Assembly: GCA_040371205.1 (NCBI GenBank)
Contig: AP031382.1
Coordinates: 987,562 to 1,051,561 of the forward strand
Length of the DNA: 64,000 nucleotides
Direction of reading: 5' to 3'
Source of the DNA: Rhodanobacter sp.
GTDB taxonomy: Bacteria > Pseudomonadota > Gammaproteobacteria > Xanthomonadales > Rhodanobacteraceae
In this document: positions 31,440 to 53,262 of the stretch, piece by piece
How positions within the stretch are numbered: position 1 is the stretch's first letter
How the letters are laid out: the number at the start of each line of letters is the position of its first letter
The notes under the pieces: model-generated
What the model was told of the DNA's origin: nothing
The model's input: the letters and a program-made list of their open reading frames with translations, nothing else
The model's database searches: none
Made by a program: the position numbers and the translations under genes

Positions 31440-32561
31440 ATGTTCTGGATCAAGCAGATCGTGGTCGGCGACGGCGAGCGCGGCCTGCTGTACCGCAACC
31501 GTCGCTTCGAGCGCGTGTTGGCCCCCGGCGTGTACCGGGTGTTCGACCCGCGCAACCGCGTGGCCGTGACCGTGCACAACCTAGTCCGTCCGGAGTACGC
31601 CGGCAACGATGCCGAGGTGTTGATGACGCGGATCGACGGCCCGCTGGCCGAGCACCTGCAGCTGGCCGACATCGGCATCGACCAGGTCGGTCTCGTGCTG
31701 AAGAACGGCAAGCTGGAGGACGTGCTGGCACCGGGTACCCGCAAGCTGTACTGGAAGGGCCTGGTGGCGGTCGAGGTGGTGGCCGTATCGCTGGTCGACT
31801 CGCTGCGGGTCGACCCGCGGGTGGCCGAACGCCTGCGCCAGCTCGGCGTGCTGGCCAAGGTGGCGGTGACGGTGGACGTGCCGACCGAGTCGGCCGGCCT
31901 GCTGTTCGTCGACAGTACCCTGGTCGAGACGCTGGCGCCGGGCGCGTACGCGTTCTGGAGCTTCCGCAGGAATGTCTCGCTGGAGGTGATCGACCTGCGC
32001 GTGCAGTCGCTGGAGGTGTCGGGTCAGGAATTGCTGACCCGCGACAAGGTAAGCCTGCGCGTGAACCTGGCCGCCAGCCTGCGCGTGACCGACCCGGTCG
32101 CCGCGCGCACCAAGGTGGCCAAGTACGGCGACTACGTCTACCGCGAACTGCAGTACGGCCTGCGCAAGGCGGTCTCGGTCAAGACGCTGGACGAGTTGCT
32201 CGGCGACAAGGCCTCGCTGGACGCCGACATCTTCGCCTACGTCCGCGGCCGCGTGGTCGAGCTGGGCCTGGAGGTGCTCAGCGTGGGCGTGAAGGACGTC
32301 ATCCTGCCGGGCGAGATGAAGGACATCCTCAACAGCGTGGTGCAGGCGGAGAAGGCGGCCCAGGCCAACGTGATCCGCCGTCGCGAGGAGTCGAACGCCA
32401 CGCGTTCGCTGCTCAACACCGCCAGGCTGATCGAGGAGAGCCCCGTGCTGATGCGCCTGAAGGAGCTCGAGGCCTTGGAAAAAGTCACCGAGAAGATCGA
32501 CAAGCTGACCGTGTTCGGTGGCCTGGACGGCGTGCTGAAGCAGTTGGTCAGTCTCAACTAG
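31440..32561 (+). CDS. SPFH/band-7 domain protein with no obvious N-terminal TM segment.
   Basis: It is 373 aa. GAAGGAG lies 7 nt before the ATG. It has an SPFH-like core and a C-terminal coiled-coil/Ala-Glu-rich region (VVQAEKAAQANVIRRREESNATR). Confidence 0.75.
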   Translation: MFWIKQIVVGDGERGLLYRNRRFERVLAPGVYRVFDPRNRVAVTVHNLVRPEYAGNDAEVLMTRIDGPLAEHLQLADIGIDQVGLVLKNGKLEDVLAPGTRKLYWKGLVAVEVVAVSLVDSLRVDPRVAERLRQLGVLAKVAVTVDVPTESAGLLFVDSTLVETLAPGAYAFWSFRRNVSLEVIDLRVQSLEVSGQELLTRDKVSLRVNLAASLRVTDPVAARTKVAKYGDYVYRELQYGLRKAVSVKTLDELLGDKASLDADIFAYVRGRVVELGLEVLSVGVKDVILPGEMKDILNSVVQAEKAAQANVIRRREESNATRSLLNTARLIEESPVLMRLKELEALEKVTEKIDKLTVFGGLDGVLKQLVSLN

Positions 32562-32617
32562 CAACACCCGGCACCGCCGCACGGAGGCGACGGTACCGGG
32601 GCCATCAAGGAATGAAC

Positions 32618-33838
32618 ATGAGCAATCAACAGTACGAATGGCTGCACGCCGAGGGCAGCGCCACGCCGATCAAGGGCTGGGTACAGGGCGTGCCGCTGGA
32701 AGATTCGGCGAAGCAGCAATTGCAGAACATCGCCACGCTGCCCTTCGTCGGGCCGTGGGTGGCCGTGATGCCGGACGTGCACCTGGGCAAGGGCGCCACC
32801 GTGGGATCGGTGGTGCCGACCCGCGGCGCGATCATCCCGGCCGCGGTGGGCGTGGACATCGGCTGCGGCATGGCCGCGGTGCGCACCACGCTGACCGCCA
32901 AGGATCTGCCGGACAACCTGGCCCAGCTGCGTTCGAGCATCGAGCGCGGCGTGCCGGTCGGCAACGGCCGCGGCGGCGATCACCATCGCCTGCCGGACAG
33001 CCTCCATACGCGGCTGGTCGAGTCAGGCCTGGCCGCGCGGCTGGAGATGGTGAAGGCGAAGCACCGGAAGATCCGCACCGACAAGGTCGACAAGCAGCTG
33101 GGCACACTCGGCGGCGGCAACCACTTCATCGAGGTCTGCCTCGACGAATCGGACGCCGTGTGGGTGATGCTGCACTCGGGTTCGCGCGGTACCGGCAACC
33201 TGATCGGCAGCTACTTCATCGAGCAGGCCCGACAGGAACTGGGCAAGCGCGTGCTGGGTTATCACGTGCCAGACAAGGACCTGGCCTTCTTCATGGAAGG
33301 CGAGCCGCTGTTCGACGACTACGTCGAGGCGGTGTCCTGGGCGCAGGACTACGCCCGCGCCAACCGCGAGGCCATGATGGCCCGCGTACTGGCGGATATG
33401 CGTCACCGCCTGCCGACCTTCCAGCTCGCCGCGATGGCGGTGAACTGCCATCACAACTATGTGCAGAAGGAGACGCACGGCGGGCAGGAACTGCTGGTCA
33501 CCCGCAAGGGCGCGGTGAGTGCGCGGGCCGGCGAGCTGGGCATCATCCCCGGTTCGATGGGTACGCGCAGCTACATCGTGCGCGGCAAGGGCAACGCGGA
33601 CAGCTTCCACAGCTGCAGCCACGGTGCCGGTCGCGTGATGAGCCGCAGCGCGGCGCGCCAGCAGATCACCCTGGCCCAGCACCGCGAGGCCACGGCGCAC
33701 GTGGAATGCCGCAAGGACGCAGCGGTGATCGACGAGTCGCCGGCGGCGTACAAGTCGATCGACGCAGTGATGGCTGCCCAGACCGACCTGGTCGAGGTGG
33801 TACACACGCTGCGCCAGGTGCTGTGCGTTAAGGGCTGA
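32618..33838 (+). CDS. rtcB: RNA 3'-phosphate (2',3'-cyclic phosphate)/5'-OH ligase RtcB.
   Basis: The start is MSNQQYEWL. Conserved RtcB metal and GTP motifs are present ([43 protein letters not shown]). AAGGAA lies 7 nt before the chosen ATG. The first roughly 430 aa of the listed 844-aa ORF are an out-of-frame overlap with the SPFH gene. Confidence 0.9.
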
Positions 33839-33933
33839 TGCCCGCCGCCATGGGCGCCGCTCCGGACGGGGCGGCGCTTTTTGTGTCCTGGCTGCCGGTC
33901 TGCGGGATAATGCCGCGTTGCACGACCTTGCGT

Positions 33934-34986
33934 ATGCCGACCGAGCCCGTTGCCTTGAAGAAGTCCGATTTCGATTTCGACCTGCCACCCGAACTGATCG
34001 CCCAGGCGCCGCTGCCTGAGCGTTCGGCCAGCCGCCTGCTGCTGTTGGACGCGGCGGCAGGCCGGCGCGAGGACCGGATGTTCCGCGAGCTGCCCGGTTT
34101 CCTGCGTCCCGGCGACCTGCTGGTGTTCAACGACACCCGCGTGCTGCCGGCGCGCCTGTACGGGCGCAAGGACACCGGCGGCGCGGTGGAGATCCTGATC
34201 GAGCGCGTCACCGGCGCGCACGAGGCGGTGGTGCAACTCGGCGTCAGCAAGAAGCCGAAGGAGGGCGGCCGCATCGAGCTGGCCGACGGCAGCCACGCGG
34301 TGGTGCTGGGCCGCGACGAGGGATTCTTCCGCCTGCGCTTCGAGGCGCCCGAGCCGCTGGAGAAGCTGCTGCTGAAGCTGGGCGAGATGCCCTTGCCGCC
34401 GTACATCGAGCGCCATGCCGACGCCGGCGACATGGAGCGCTACCAGACTGTCTACGCGCGCGAGCCCGGCGCCGTGGCCGCGCCCACCGCCGGCCTGCAT
34501 TTCGACGAGCCGCTGCTCGCCGCCCTGCGCGAGCGCGGGGTGGGCTTCGGCTACGTCACCCTGCACGTGGGCGCGGGCACCTTCCAACCGGTGCGCGCGG
34601 AGAACATCGGCGACCACCACATGCACCGCGAATGGCTCAACGTGGGCGCCAGCCTGGTCGAGCAGATCCGCCGCACGCGCGCCGCCGGCGGCCGCGTGTT
34701 CGCGGTGGGCACCACGGTGGTGCGCGCGCTGGAAAGCGCCACGGTGGAAGGCGAGCTGCATCCGTTCGCGGGCGAGACGCAGATCTTCATCTTCCCCGGC
34801 TACAAGATCACCAGCATCGACGGCCTGATCACCAACTTCCACCTGCCGCAGTCGACCCTGCTGATGCTGGTGTCGGCGCTGGCCGGCCGCGAGTTCATGC
34901 TCGACGCGTACCGGCATGCGGTGGAGCAGCGCTATCGCTTCTTCTCCTACGGCGACGCGATGCTGATCCTGCCGCGCAGCGCCTGA
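33934..34986 (+). CDS. queA: S-adenosylmethionine:tRNA ribosyltransferase-isomerase.
   Basis: [31 protein letters not shown] aligns with the E. coli QueA N-terminus. The motifs GAGTFQPVR and [12 protein letters not shown] are present. Confidence 0.9.
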
Positions 34987-50941: not shown

Positions 50942-51029
50942 TTCCGCACGCGCGGGTAGCGGGCATTCGTCGCGCCGACATCACTGGGCGATTATCCGCG
51001 CTGTGCTTTTGAACGTCCCGTGGAGAGGG

Positions 51030-51905
51030 CTAGAGCTCAGAATCATCCGCGTAAAGTCTCTGGTACATGACCATCGCCGCCGAAAGGCCCAGAGCGATGA
51101 ACGCGGTCATCAGCACCAAGTTTCGTCTGGCGACGCCCAGGTTCCAGCCCTGTGCCACCGGCAAGGGCGGGCCGATCACCGGTGGCGGCAACACCGGCGG
51201 CACGATCACGGGCGGGCCGCCGCCCAGAACCGCCGCAACTACCGGAACTGCTGCCGCAGCCAGATGCAAGTCGCCGATGCTCTGCCCGTGCCAGTTGAAA
51301 GCTGCGTTCAACTCGTTGGCCACCATCGCACGCAGCGGCGGCGCCACGAACCCTGCAGCGATCTGATGCCAGGCGCCGCCTTGATGTACCCGGAAAATTC
51401 CTGCCAGCTGCGCCATCCGCGGTGGCCCGTACCAACCCGCCGGCGGAATGAGTGGACTGGGTCCCAATGCGGCTGCGACATTGACTTCCGCGATCGCCTG
51501 AACCTGCGAATGTTCCTGATCCAGTGGCGTATTGGCGCCGATGTTCAGATTGATGTCGTTAACCAACTGGTTCAGATCGGCGAGCGCGGCCAGTTTCACG
51601 TAGAGCGTGGAGAAGGCCGGACGGTTGATCAAATGGGTGTTGGTGATGTGGTAAGTCGCCACCGTCAGCGGTAGCGCAAGATCAATACCGGTTTCTTCAA
51701 GAAACTCCCGTTCGGCCGCAGCCTGCGGGGCTTCGCCAGCATTGATCTGCCCACCCGGAAAGCATGCCTGGCCGGCGCCGTGCAGCAGCACCGGGGGCGC
51801 AACGGCTGCGCCATTAAAGCGGGAGCCTGTGAAGTGTTTGGTTGCCAGGAGCACCTGACGCGCAGCAGCGTTGTCGCACCAGACAACCGTGTAAGCGTAA
51901 GGCAT
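51030..51905 (-). CDS. Nudix hydrolase fused to a Pro-rich linker and a C-terminal transmembrane anchor.
   Basis: The Nudix box is GGQINAGEAPQAAAEREFLEETGI. The C-terminus contains GGGPPVIVPPVLPPPVIGPPLP followed by LVLMTAFIALGLSAAMVMY. GGAG lies before the ATG. GC3 is clearly lower than in core genes. The upstream 50 codons of the listed ORF have even lower GC3 and were excluded. Confidence 0.65.
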   Translation of the reverse strand: MPYAYTVVWCDNAAARQVLLATKHFTGSRFNGAAVAPPVLLHGAGQACFPGGQINAGEAPQAAAEREFLEETGIDLALPLTVATYHITNTHLINRPAFSTLYVKLAALADLNQLVNDINLNIGANTPLDQEHSQVQAIAEVNVAAALGPSPLIPPAGWYGPPRMAQLAGIFRVHQGGAWHQIAAGFVAPPLRAMVANELNAAFNWHGQSIGDLHLAAAAVPVVAAVLGGGPPVIVPPVLPPPVIGPPLPVAQGWNLGVARRNLVLMTAFIALGLSAAMVMYQRLYADDSEL

Positions 51906-52354
51906 GACACACTCCTGGTCGCATTGAAAGCTGCGCTGGGGACAACACGGATCGTCCGGGTCTGGAGGCGGAACCACATCCAGCCGTGCCCCTTGTTCGG
52001 GGCAGTCAGCCCGCACATTTTCTTGGTGTCCGCCGTATTGAGAATGTGATGGCACCGAACAACAAGGATGGCTGCCTCCGGCTACCAGCGTAATCGCGGC
52101 GTGGGTCGACCCTGCTATCCCAAATCTACGCCCGATGATCGGGCAGCATTCGGTGGTGGCGAAGACATGGGTATTTGCTGCACGGGCGGGCGGGGTGTGC
52201 CGGTGCGAATAGACAGTTGGACGACGTCAAAGCTTGAGGCGATAACCCTGGTCAAGTACTGAGGCTTGCCTGACTGTACCGAGCGGCAGCATCAGCAAAC
52301 TTGTAAAATGCCCGCCTCGCATGGGCGCCCGGCCCGTCAAGGATTGCTGCTGAC

Positions 52355-52816
52355 ATGAAAACCATCGAAGGCGATTTCGCCACGCCCAAGGGCCGCTTTG
52401 CCATTGTCGCGGGCCGTTTCAACGGCTTTGTCGTGGAGCCGCTGGTGGCCGGTGCGCGCGACGCGCTGGTGCGCCACGGCGTGAAGGACGACGACATCGA
52501 GCTGGTGCGCGTGCCCGGTGCGTGGGAAATCGCATTGGCCGCGCACAAGCTGGCCAGCTCGGGCAAGTACGCCGCGGTGATCGCGCTGGGCGCGGTGATC
52601 CGCGGTTCCACGCCGCACTTCGACTACGTGGCCGGCGAATGCGCCAAGGGCTTGGCCAAGGCCGCGCTGGACACCGGCGTGCCGGTGGCGTTCGGTGTGC
52701 TCACCACCGACAGCATCGAGCAGGCCATCGAGCGCTCCGGCACCAAGGCCGGCAACAAGGGCGCCGACGCGGCCGTCGCCGCGCTGGAGATGGTCAACCT
52801 GTACGGGCAGCTGTGA
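52355..52816 (+). CDS. ribH: 6,7-dimethyl-8-ribityllumazine synthase.
   Basis: It is 153 aa, with a start and motifs typical of RibH ([12 protein letters not shown]). Confidence 0.9.
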
Positions 52817-53262
52817 TGAACCAGCGTCCGGAAGGCATCGACCTCGCCGCGCGCTCGCGCGCCCGCCGCCGTGCGTTGCAGGCGCTGTACGCGTGGCAGC
52901 TTTCCGGCAGCCACATGAACGCGGTAATCGAGCAGTTCCGCCACGAGCAGGACATGGAAGTGGCCGACCTCGACTACTTCGAGGACCTGCTGCACGGCGT
53001 GGAGCAGCACGTGGCCGACCTCGACGCCGTGCTGCGCCCCTACCTCGACCGCGAGGTGGCCGAGGTCGATCCCATCGAGCGCGCCGCGCTGCGTCTGGCC
53101 GCCTACGAGCTGCAGCACCGCCCCGACGTGCCGTACCGCGTGGTGATCAACGAGGCCATCGAAGTCACCAAGCGCTTCGGCGCCGACCACGGCCACAGCT
53201 ACGTCAACGGCGTGCTGGACAAGCTGGCCGCGCAACTGCGCAGCGCGGAGAAGCGCGGCTGA
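52816..53262 (+). CDS. nusB: Transcription antitermination factor NusB.
   Basis: [27 protein letters not shown] is typical of NusB. It overlaps the ribH stop by 1 nt. Confidence 0.9.
   Translation: MNQRPEGIDLAARSRARRRALQALYAWQLSGSHMNAVIEQFRHEQDMEVADLDYFEDLLHGVEQHVADLDAVLRPYLDREVAEVDPIERAALRLAAYELQHRPDVPYRVVINEAIEVTKRFGADHGHSYVNGVLDKLAAQLRSAEKRG

Follow-up and report, generated by a model that had tools for sequence, protein, structure and literature searches.

A probable Band-7 (SPFH)–RtcB RNA-repair locus with a tandem tRNA-like RNA in Rhodanobacter sp.

A 64,000-nucleotide stretch of the genome of Rhodanobacter sp. (assembly GCA_040371205.1, contig AP031382.1, positions 987,562 to 1,051,561 of the forward strand; this whole stretch is called the window below) carries a gene for an SPFH (Band-7) protein followed by rtcB, which encodes an RNA ligase. 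The locus is probably a Band-7(SPFH)–RtcB RNA-repair system with a tRNA-like noncoding RNA, in an RtcR- and RtcA-less form typical of the Xanthomonadales/Lysobacterales. The conservation of the two genes as a pair, the soluble character of the SPFH protein and the linkage of the SPFH gene to a structured RNA with two tRNA-like modules carry this assignment. RtcB is among the best understood RNA ligases; its bacterial substrates and helpers are still unclear. A branch of Rtc systems with a Band-7 protein and a tRNA-like RNA has been predicted since 2012-2016.

The SPFH and rtcB genes

Both genes are located on the forward strand. The SPFH gene (31440-32561) encodes a protein of 373 amino acids with a match to the Pfam Band_7 family (PF01145, E=4.6e-25, residues 147-317). 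The rtcB gene (32618-33838) encodes a protein of 406 amino acids that matches PF01139 (E=3e-126). Pfam thus confirmed the two gene assignments of the original prediction, a note that had been made from the DNA sequence alone. The distance of 57 nt that the note gives between the SPFH start and rtcB is a slip of wording: the SPFH gene ends 56 nt before the rtcB start, and a terminator scan found no site in this gap. The strong ribosome-binding sites that had been described are present, AAGGAG at 31427-31432, 7 nt upstream of the SPFH start codon ATG, and AAGGAA at 32607-32612. Because the latter overlaps an alternative rtcB start codon (ATG at 32612), 32618 (MSNQQ...) is the likely start of rtcB. 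The RtcB protein is 58% identical to E. coli RtcB (tblastn), and its conserved motifs are intact and align with the solved RtcB structures. It is an RtcB of the E. coli type.

Conservation of the SPFH-rtcB pair

Related loci were obtained from a scan of one genome per GTDB species, and the best 80 of at least 533 confirmed matches were compared. All 80 loci belong to the Xanthomonadales/Lysobacterales, with SPFH identities of 69-96%. Enough downstream sequence for counting RtcB was available in 77 of them. RtcB lies directly downstream on the same strand in 57 of the 77 loci (median gap 67 nt) and past an insert of 0.6-1.6 kb in nine, which gives a same-strand RtcB after SPFH in 66/77 loci overall. 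It is split or fragmentary in two loci and absent nearby in nine, which have kept the RNA and the SPFH gene. Outside the order, full-length SPFH homologues (tblastn, 35-48% identity) were found in Burkholderia, Photobacterium, Citrobacter, E. coli and Subdoligranulum, beside rtcR, RtcB or a nucleotidyltransferase gene. RtcB directly follows SPFH in the clostridial Subdoligranulum variabile as well as in Burkholderia multivorans and Photobacterium sp. The two genes and the RNA move together into differing genomic neighbourhoods. Since queA, the next gene in the window, is found downstream in just three of the 80 loci, the neighbours change while the pair persists. The SPFH-RtcB pair is thus a conserved unit across bacterial phyla and not a chance adjacency. 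A comparison of gene neighbourhoods had been proposed as a check of the original prediction, and its outcome is that the pairing extends well beyond the Rhodanobacter genome.

The SPFH protein

With 100% identity, the SPFH protein matches a "slipin family protein" of a Rhodanobacter sp. metagenome-assembled genome. It has no membrane anchor, as had been noticed for its N-terminus: the highest Kyte-Doolittle mean over 19 residues is 1.44. Pfam and NCBIfam yielded generic Band_7 and weak HflK matches only, and the HflK equivalog models, with cut-offs of 159 and 660, scored 35 and 19 bits. Neither of the genes beside SPFH-rtcB is NfeD. The absence of an N-terminal anchor and of an NfeD neighbour distinguishes the protein from the membrane SPFH scaffolds HflK/C, QmcA-YbbJ and stomatin-NfeD. 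Three tandem copies of an xxGLLxxxGxxxxxLAPGxYxxW motif, each a beta-hairpin unit, are present at residues 13-37, 82-106 and 151-175, the third of which begins the SPFH domain proper. The AlphaFold2 monomer model built with 81 diverse sequences (pLDDT 90; an earlier prediction from 16 close homologues, with a pLDDT of 62, was discarded) contains three five-stranded beta units, a stomatin-like alpha/beta SPFH core and long C-terminal helices. The family comprises 579 clusters at 50% identity with E < 1e-30. The protein belongs to a distinct, widespread family. It is annotated as "slipin family protein" and is not a membrane protease modulator, so that the annotation has to be corrected.

RNA repair has been placed in host-phage and toxin conflicts in the literature (bioRxiv 10.1101/312249), and homologues of the SPFH protein were found on four IMG/VR viral contigs. 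Both points would agree with a role of the locus in anti-phage defence or abortive infection, with SPFH as the effector or sensor. Four contigs is the entire IMG/VR yield, and a tblastn search of 50,697 phage genomes with SPFH gave no match; the module is not typically carried by phages. The unit is also devoid of a nuclease or toxic effector, and its enzyme joins RNA instead of cutting it. The defence-system reading, dropped on finding that neither SPFH nor RtcB matches PADLOC-DB, is very improbable.

The tRNA-like RNA upstream of the SPFH gene

Approximately 1.1 kb of conserved non-coding sequence, mostly structured RNA, precedes the SPFH gene. About 715 nt of it form an RNA supported by covariation, in which two tRNA-like modules are found in tandem. 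Module 1 (30882-30948, forward strand, like all elements described in this and the next two sections) consists of a 7-bp acceptor stem, a D arm, a 5-bp stem with a 4-nt loop that replaces the anticodon loop, and a T arm, and ends in CCA. The trailing CCA is seen in 26 of 37 aligned sequences, right before module 2. Module 2 (30949-31022) is called as a tRNA by both ARAGORN and Rfam, and as tRNA-Met(CAT) by ARAGORN. Only four of its seven acceptor pairs form (TGGA/TCCA), the top three positions being the mismatches C·C, A·C and C·A. According to ARAGORN, the corresponding position of the related loci is occupied by two neighbouring tRNA-like elements, of which the first has a shortened "anticodon" loop. 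The anticodon of module 2 varies across the orthologous loci, with Met, Ile, Pro, Asn, Cys, Leu, His, Phe, Lys, Tyr, Gln, Glu, Gly, Thr and Ser all represented. In the alignment of 37 copies the D and T loops are invariant, while the acceptor, anticodon and T stems covary, in module 1 the acceptor and T stems. The compensatory changes in the acceptor stem of module 2 include GAGA/TCTC and GATA/TATC in place of TGGA/TCCA. The RNA is thus structured, and its two modules mimic tRNA without a kept anticodon or a full acceptor stem. A genuine tRNA-Met at 30949-31022 was ruled out by the 4-bp acceptor stem and by the anticodon, which is not conserved between orthologous loci. This feature is the second of two tandem tRNA-like modules and not a decoding tRNA, which likewise calls for a correction of the annotation.

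The covariance model of the tandem element, R1, gave a single match in the window (30876-31034, 142.8 bits). It was found at full length upstream of SPFH in 78 of the 80 loci, and both misses have less than 370 nt of upstream flank; the element is present in 78/78 loci with enough flank. Elsewhere, R1 scored 123 bits in Photobacterium and identified a reduced version of the element in Burkholderia; E. coli/Citrobacter and Subdoligranulum have kept only a T-arm-like motif. Since all 78 loci with enough flank have the RNA, compared with 66/77 for RtcB, the tRNA-like RNA is the component most tightly linked to SPFH. The original prediction had mentioned a tRNA-like islet and a hairpin-rich leader ahead of the pair. 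It was right that the leader is non-coding and structured, and wrong in treating as mere surroundings what is actually the most tightly linked component.

The tRNA calls of ARAGORN and Rfam, the generic Band_7 and weak HflK matches, and the lower G+C content of the module (0.62-0.68 across 30001-34000, compared with 0.70-0.72 in the flanks and 0.70-0.74 elsewhere) could also be explained by a functionless adjacency. The SPFH protein would then be an HflK/C- or QmcA-type scaffold that organizes membrane microdomains or regulates a protease, and 30949-31022 would be a real tRNA-Met at which an island has integrated. The protein has neither a membrane segment nor an NfeD partner, the pairing is conserved in three classes of Pseudomonadota and in Clostridia, and in the supposed tRNA the acceptor stem is 4 bp long and the anticodon shifts between orthologous loci. 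Neither an integrase gene nor a repeated tRNA 3′ end was seen in the flanks examined, where direct repeats were not systematically searched. This explanation is already contradicted by the variation of the anticodon, the defective acceptor stem, the linkage of the RNA in 78/80 loci and the conservation of RtcB, and it is regarded as extremely improbable.

Structure of the RNA and of the SPFH 5′ untranslated region

The conservation reaches about 600 nt further upstream of module 1. The 5′ domain of the RNA (30560-30881) contains the motif CAGCGG-hairpin-CCGGTGCGCGCGGC..GCCGTG..GCGTATGCC at approximately 30800-30858. RNAalifold on 31 loci yielded 54 pairs for this domain, 32 of them with compensatory changes. 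A CCGGTGCGC...GCGTATRCC motif is also found past the σ54 promoter of the Photobacterium locus (L085), and a looser variant, CTGGTGCGC...GCGCATGCC, occurs in the Burkholderia locus (L084). The 3′ domain (31021-31285) comprises the hairpin CATGAC/GTCATG (31021-31039), a GNRA hairpin (31047-31060) and, at its end, a T-rich tract. An 11-bp long-range helix between GGAAACGCCCC (31066-31076) and GGGGCGTTTCC (31263-31273) encloses the helices 31079-31126 and 31128-31259. RNAalifold on 35 loci gave 54 pairs in the 3′ domain, 48 of which show compensatory changes. Here 88.6% of the cells are paired, compared with 37-48% when the partners are slid, and the covariation score is 0.497 compared with at most 0.12; none of 500 shuffles reached the observed value. 

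The whole interval between module 2 and the SPFH gene (31023-31439, 417 nt) is conserved across genera and structured. Its G+C content by codon position is flat (0.66/0.68/0.66, compared with values of 0.90-0.94 at the third position, GC3, in genes), and the interval is therefore non-coding. Protein coding was rejected on the flat codon-position profile for this interval and for 30184-30880, with the exception of a short open reading frame (ORF) at 30356-30475. The 5′ untranslated region (5′ UTR) of the SPFH gene contains a further element (31361-31432) with a hairpin (31361-31369/31383-31391), which is followed by ATTTTGT in the Rhodanobacter window. The hairpin loop 31369-31375 (CGATCCG) is complementary to 31405-31411 (CGGATCG), a pseudoknot-like arrangement. 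In this element 76% of the cells are paired, compared with at most 47% when slid, and the covariation score is 0.286 compared with at most 0.16, a moderate support because the alignment is imperfect. Since minimum free energy folding of 30875-31050 alone did not differ significantly from shuffles (z = -1.06), the case for RNA structure rests on covariation and not on energy. 

Rfam, searched with gathering thresholds over the whole window and in E-value mode over 30000-31500, returned only the tRNA. The weak matches to ctRNA_pGA1, ncS037, Tymo_tRNA-like and Deinococcus_Y_RNA were set aside as chance or as echoes of the tRNA shape, being far below threshold. No Y-RNA family of Rfam was found at threshold, the only match being the 49-nt one to Deinococcus_Y_RNA (E=3.2).

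The region upstream of the RNA

No RtcR homologue was found in the window or in the 80 related loci. A tblastn search with the E. coli and Citrobacter proteins revealed neither RtcA nor RtcR in the entire 64-kb window, in line with what the original prediction had reported, and E. coli RtcA gave no match at E <= 1e-3 in the window or the related loci. Archease and Ro60, for which no profile search was made, could not be encoded by any ORF in the unit or immediately beside it. The ORFs of the unit encode no TROVE domain, only Band_7 and RtcB, the TROVE profile not having been run on the rest of the window. The operon type is not characterised by a lack of RtcR and RtcA: Burkholderia and Photobacterium have the RNA, SPFH, RtcB and RtcR, and Citrobacter has RtcR, SPFH and a nucleotidyltransferase without RtcB. 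In these three genera a divergent rtcR precedes SPFH, with a σ54-type promoter (TGGCAC-N5-TNGC) between the two genes. The σ54 promoter lies upstream of the RNA in the Burkholderia and Photobacterium loci and upstream of the remnant T-arm motif in the Citrobacter locus (L082). From its position upstream of the RNA it follows that the RNA and SPFH share one promoter in the RtcR-bearing relatives. A σ54 motif is absent from the window and from the 80 related loci. The best σ54-consensus score upstream in the window is 8/12, compared with 10-11/12 in the RtcR-bearing loci. The upstream sequence of about 1.1 kb seems to stand in for the usual regulator RtcR.

At the 5′ end of this sequence a σ70-like promoter candidate is located at 30266-30294, with a -35 box TTGCAA (30266-30271), a 17-nt spacer and a -10 box TATGCT (30289-30294), preceded by an A-rich tract. 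Its columns CTTGC and GTA..GT.CGC are at least 90% conserved in 32 aligned loci with differing flanking genes. A scan of 30000-34200 for σ70 promoters found none, and 30266-30294 is below its threshold; the promoter is a candidate suggested by conservation and position. It is followed by the short ORF (30356-30475, 39 codons, MNLSCFIASKPNTSPEMRDAGLRVWTWFPVTEGQFHSID), which may encode a leader peptide. In all 53 loci with the hairpin that comes next, termed hairpin 1, an ATG lies 95-200 nt upstream of it and the first stop codon 9-20 nt before it. This ATG is the sole one in the 95-200-nt span in 25 of the 53 loci. The lengths are mostly 33-50 codons, in steps of three, and TGA, TAG and TAA are all used as stop codons. 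The 51 distinct peptides are only weakly alike, and the ORF has neither a Shine-Dalgarno sequence nor a Pfam match. 

Hairpin 1 (30486-30508, GGAGATCGG / CCGATCTCC) has 9 bp and a 5-nt loop. Its sequence hardly varies across genera, with a conservation of 8-9 out of 10. It shows no covariation, and its fold is accordingly a prediction. Downstream of it lies an intrinsic terminator (30523-30557) with a 10-bp stem, CGCCCTCGGG/CCCGGGGGCG, followed by TTTAGTTTT; the terminator scan flags 30532-30547. The terminator is conserved in the aligned loci. Its 5′ arm (30526-30532) could pair with CCCGAGG (30507-30513), which would give a possible antiterminator.

The strong terminator after the short ORF, the T-rich tract after the closing helix of the RNA and the poorly conserved stretch of about 90 nt (31285-31345) between the RNA and the 5′-UTR element might be read as boundaries of independent genes. 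The upstream elements would in that case be a small protein gene and at least one small RNA gene, and SPFH-rtcB would be transcribed from an unregulated promoter of its own. Against this, all blocks keep a constant order and orientation across loci whose flanking genes differ, and the σ54 promoter of the RtcR-bearing relatives lies ahead of the RNA and is shared with SPFH. We consider a set of independent genes to be quite unlikely.

Two side observations concern these elements. Among the C-terminal four residues of the 51 peptides, Asp, Thr, Ile and His are frequent (..HSID, ..THID, ..HLDT). His and Asp codons are read by queuosine-modified tRNAs, and colicin E5 cuts those tRNAs. The bias at the end of the ORF may also be explained by conservation at the RNA level (ATCGACTGATC). 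Hairpin 1 (30486-30508) and the 5′-UTR element (31369-31411) are both built on the self-complementary core CCGATC/GATCGG. In the locus L022 the 5′-UTR copy has become CCGGCCC/GGGCCGG with hairpin 1 unchanged. As the change affects the 5′-UTR copy alone, the two elements seem not to pair with each other.

Variation among the related loci

Several loci differ from the window in the genes around SPFH. In Lysobacter brunescens (L068:5130-5816) a gene for an ATP-dependent RNA ligase (PF09414, E=5e-20) is inserted between SPFH and rtcB, so that two different RNA ligases follow one SPFH gene. L071 shows the same layout, its insert not itself being profile-scanned. In three further loci (L047:5237-6040, L059:5282-6163 and L080:5218-6147) ORFs of 267-309 amino acids with high GC3 are located between SPFH and RtcB; they match no Pfam family and do not resemble the enterobacterial nucleotidyltransferase. 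RtcB in L027 (5207-6420) is encoded in two overlapping pieces (residues 2-234 and 224-406), a frameshift due to a pseudogene or an assembly error.

A nucleotidyltransferase gene follows SPFH or RtcB in four other lineages. The loci of E. coli STEC639 (L081, 4998-6922) and Citrobacter freundii (L082, 2960-6913) contain SPFH and a nucleotidyltransferase and have no RtcB. In this pair rtcR is annotated in Citrobacter only, and a σ54-like promoter and the T-arm-like remnant TGGGTTCGATTCCCA lie ahead of SPFH. Both are filed as plasmids in PLSDB, yet their neighbours (rluF, lysC, pgi) are housekeeping genes. Arrays of tRNA genes are found immediately upstream of SPFH in two loci, one of 14 genes in L045 (1-2043) and one of 24 genes in L088 (146-3551), a 94-kb IMG/VR viral contig. 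No RtcB follows SPFH within the fetched part of L088. The RNA ligase gene, the nucleotidyltransferase and the tRNA arrays are in keeping with a theme of RNA repair.

Proposed function

Solved SPFH proteins form rings or cages. The identity of the two proteins and their linkage to the RNA are observed; for their interplay we infer the following mechanism. The soluble SPFH protein may oligomerise and, together with the tRNA-mimicking RNA, act as a scaffold or cofactor, in analogy to Ro60 and Y RNA of the rsr-yrlBA-rtcBA operons. The scaffold would capture or present RNAs that ribotoxins or stress nucleases have cut in the anticodon loop or elsewhere, and RtcB would rejoin their 2',3'-cyclic-phosphate or 3'-phosphate ends to 5'-OH ends. 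In the relatives, RtcR and the σ54 promoter would turn the unit on as tRNA halves accumulate. In the Xanthomonadales, control by RtcR would be replaced by the σ70-like promoter, the short ORF, the hairpin and the terminator, which may work as a translation-coupled attenuator: with damaged or scarce tRNAs, ribosomes would stall on the short ORF, and read-through would extend transcription to the RNA and the two genes. The attenuator is proposed because the block of promoter, short ORF and terminator sits where the relatives have RtcR and the σ54 motif.

A more elaborate version of this mechanism was also considered. The 1.1 kb upstream sequence of the Xanthomonadales could be a two-part RNA device, in which an attenuator reads tRNA damage via ribosome stalling and replaces RtcR, and the RNA of about 715 nt with its two tRNA mimics assembles with the repeat-extended SPFH protein into a vault-like ribonucleoprotein (RNP) that holds broken tRNAs for RtcB. 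This version is put forward tentatively, as a possibility that we find rather doubtful. If it were true, the locus would encode a large bacterial RNP on an SPFH cage and a new switch for RNA repair. If the module turns out to be no more than an accessory of ordinary RtcB repair, the annotation corrections for "tRNA-Met" and "slipin family protein" remain.

Several points weigh against an RNA-repair system of the proposed kind. The RNA and SPFH occur without RtcB nearby in nine of 77 loci, and RtcB is split or fragmentary in two; E. coli and Citrobacter combine SPFH with a nucleotidyltransferase and have no RtcB. It follows from such loci that the core pair may be the RNA and SPFH, with RtcB as one of several possible partners. 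Binding of SPFH to the RNA or to RtcB is a supposition, and the structure model is that of a monomer. With respect to the attenuator, the short ORF lacks a Shine-Dalgarno sequence. The switching logic is also incomplete, as hairpin 1 shares only 2 nt with the putative antiterminator, and the sequences of hairpin 1 and of the terminator vary too little for a covariation test. The T-rich tract after the closing helix of the 3′ domain might end the RNA. SPFH-rtcB would then need its own promoter, and none was identified. In Pseudomonas aeruginosa, deletion of the SPFH gene paFlo8 had no phenotype in growth, motility, biofilm formation, virulence or oxidative stress according to a 2026 study, and RNA-damaging conditions were not among the assays found there.

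As an alternative, a particle of the RNA and SPFH may itself be the working unit, with a main task other than repair. Such a particle would sense, store or sequester tRNAs or their fragments, for quality control or as a decoy, with RtcB, the other ligases and the nucleotidyltransferase as interchangeable additions. Consistent with this, the RNA is linked to SPFH more strictly than RtcB is (78/78 compared with 66/77 loci), the enterobacterial loci have SPFH and a nucleotidyltransferase without RtcB, SPFH is directly preceded by tRNA arrays in L045 and in the viral L088, the latter without RtcB, and the anticodon loop of module 2 varies freely between species, as that of a decoy or mimic might. 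RtcB is still the commonest neighbour across phyla, however, and the other partners too are RNA-end-joining or end-modifying enzymes. The RtcR of the relatives responds to broken tRNAs, which fits repair at least equally well. A particle whose main task is not repair is held to be unlikely, and an RNA-repair system remains the preferred assignment.

Comparison with known systems

The operon type has been described before, so that the novelty of the SPFH-RtcB pair, which the original prediction had left open, is largely absent. In Pelobacter carbinolicus, a "mutant tRNA" (Pcar_R0061), a stomatin-like protein (Pcar_2837), rtcA1, rtcB and a divergent rtcR were reported in 2012, and the authors suggested that the mutant tRNA is a substrate or guide (PMC3543383). 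The likeness to the window lies in the order of the tRNA-like RNA, the stomatin-like protein and RtcB, Pcar_2837 being likened by description; the P. carbinolicus locus has RtcR and RtcA, whereas the window has neither. According to the summary in a 2018 preprint, Burroughs & Aravind (2016) described a Band-7 protein with RtcB and a "b7a-tRNA" (short for band-7-associated tRNA), and proposed that Band-7 and the RNA are an analogue of Ro60/Y-RNA, a cofactor system (bioRxiv 10.1101/312249). The scaffold-plus-ligase view of the original prediction agrees with this published proposal from comparative genomics. In the preprint the b7a-tRNA is stated not to have been validated (bioRxiv 10.1101/312249). 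The system as summarized there shares with the window an RtcB beside a Band-7 protein, a tRNA-like noncoding RNA upstream and a proposed scaffold or cofactor role. In contrast to that second-hand description, the window has no RtcR, its modules stand in tandem within about 715 nt of RNA, and a terminator and a small ORF lie upstream. The paFlo8 gene of P. aeruginosa is embedded in an rtc locus according to the 2026 study. No experimental work on the function of the Band-7/SPFH-RtcB-tRNA-like RNA system was found in the literature. The RtcR-independent variant, with its tandem modules in the 715-nt RNA, the small ORF and terminator and the pseudoknot-like 5′ UTR, may be new; no description of these features was found in the literature, Burroughs & Aravind (2016) being represented by the second-hand summary only.

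A further parallel is the RtcR-controlled rsr-yrlBA-rtcBA operon of Salmonella, which encodes Ro60, the Y-RNA-like YrlA/YrlB, RtcB and RtcA (PMC7790460, PMC4201824). Its Y-RNA-like genes are under the RtcR-dependent promoter, and tRNA halves with a terminal cyclic phosphate are the signal to which RtcR responds (PMC7790460). Both loci encode an RNA ligase together with an oligomeric RNA-binding protein, a role predicted for SPFH in the window, and tRNA-mimicking noncoding RNAs within one operon or, in the window, a putative operon. The protein of the window has an SPFH fold and not a TROVE/Ro fold, its RNA is below the Rfam Y-RNA thresholds, and regulation by RtcR is missing. The E. coli rtcBA operon with its divergent rtcR resembles the window in the 58% identity of RtcB; the unit in the window is without RtcA, RtcR and a σ54 promoter and has SPFH and the RNA besides.

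The SPFH protein also resembles the major vault protein of the eukaryotic vault, in which beta-repeat domains, an SPFH-like shoulder and a cap helix occur together with vault RNAs. Common to both are a soluble SPFH-fold protein, beta-strand repeats before it, a long helix after it and small structured RNAs. Foldseek aligned the SPFH model with the major vault protein over 420-480 columns (E ~1e-11). In its proposed layout the upstream region resembles the leader-peptide attenuators of the trp, his and other operons: ahead of the genes come a promoter and a conserved short ORF, then an intrinsic terminator with alternative pairings. It differs from them in having no run of codons for a single amino acid and no Shine-Dalgarno sequence. 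Its terminator is separated from the first gene by about 900 nt of structured RNA, and the switching is so far a proposal. 

In Anabaena sp. PCC 7120, TrcR represses rtcB (all3526), the gene of a "slipin family protein" (alr0740) and a tRNA operon of 26 genes. All of them are de-repressed in the trcR mutant, and the tRNA operon is reportedly switched on by translational stress from antibiotics (PMC10272220). The Anabaena genes are a lead only, and would be experimental evidence of co-regulation if alr0740 belongs to the SPFH family of the window.

The locus offers a clean three-component version of the system without RtcA and RtcR, a large covariation-supported RNA that is absent from Rfam and a candidate cis-acting control element. 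More than 78 relatives are available in the culturable genera Xanthomonas, Lysobacter, Dyella, Rhodanobacter and Pseudoxanthomonas. The wider interest concerns the role of soluble SPFH proteins, SPFH cages that might hold RNA as vaults do, and the induction of RNA repair without RtcR.

Boundaries and flanking genes

The unit is closed by an intrinsic terminator on the forward strand (33852-33886), situated between rtcB and queA. It has a 12-bp G+C-rich stem (33852-33879) with nine G-C pairs and a TTTTTGTG tail. The queA gene (PF02547) is indeed the next gene, as the original prediction had it. Its membership in the module, suggested by the theme of tRNA modification, was rejected in view of the terminator in between and the lack of conservation as a neighbour, and queA is placed outside the unit. 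The flanking genes of the unit encode a histidine kinase, a protein with a bacterial PH domain, QueA and an RND pump. The PH-domain gene (29599-30183) is located upstream on the reverse strand, and its product has a hydrophobic N-terminal half followed by the domain (bPH_5, E=2e-11). As tblastn found no homologue of it in the related loci, this neighbour is probably unrelated to the module. The genome from which the window comes is Rhodanobacter-like, with a G+C content of about 70%. A second dip in G+C content, to 0.63-0.65, is present at 51001-53000.

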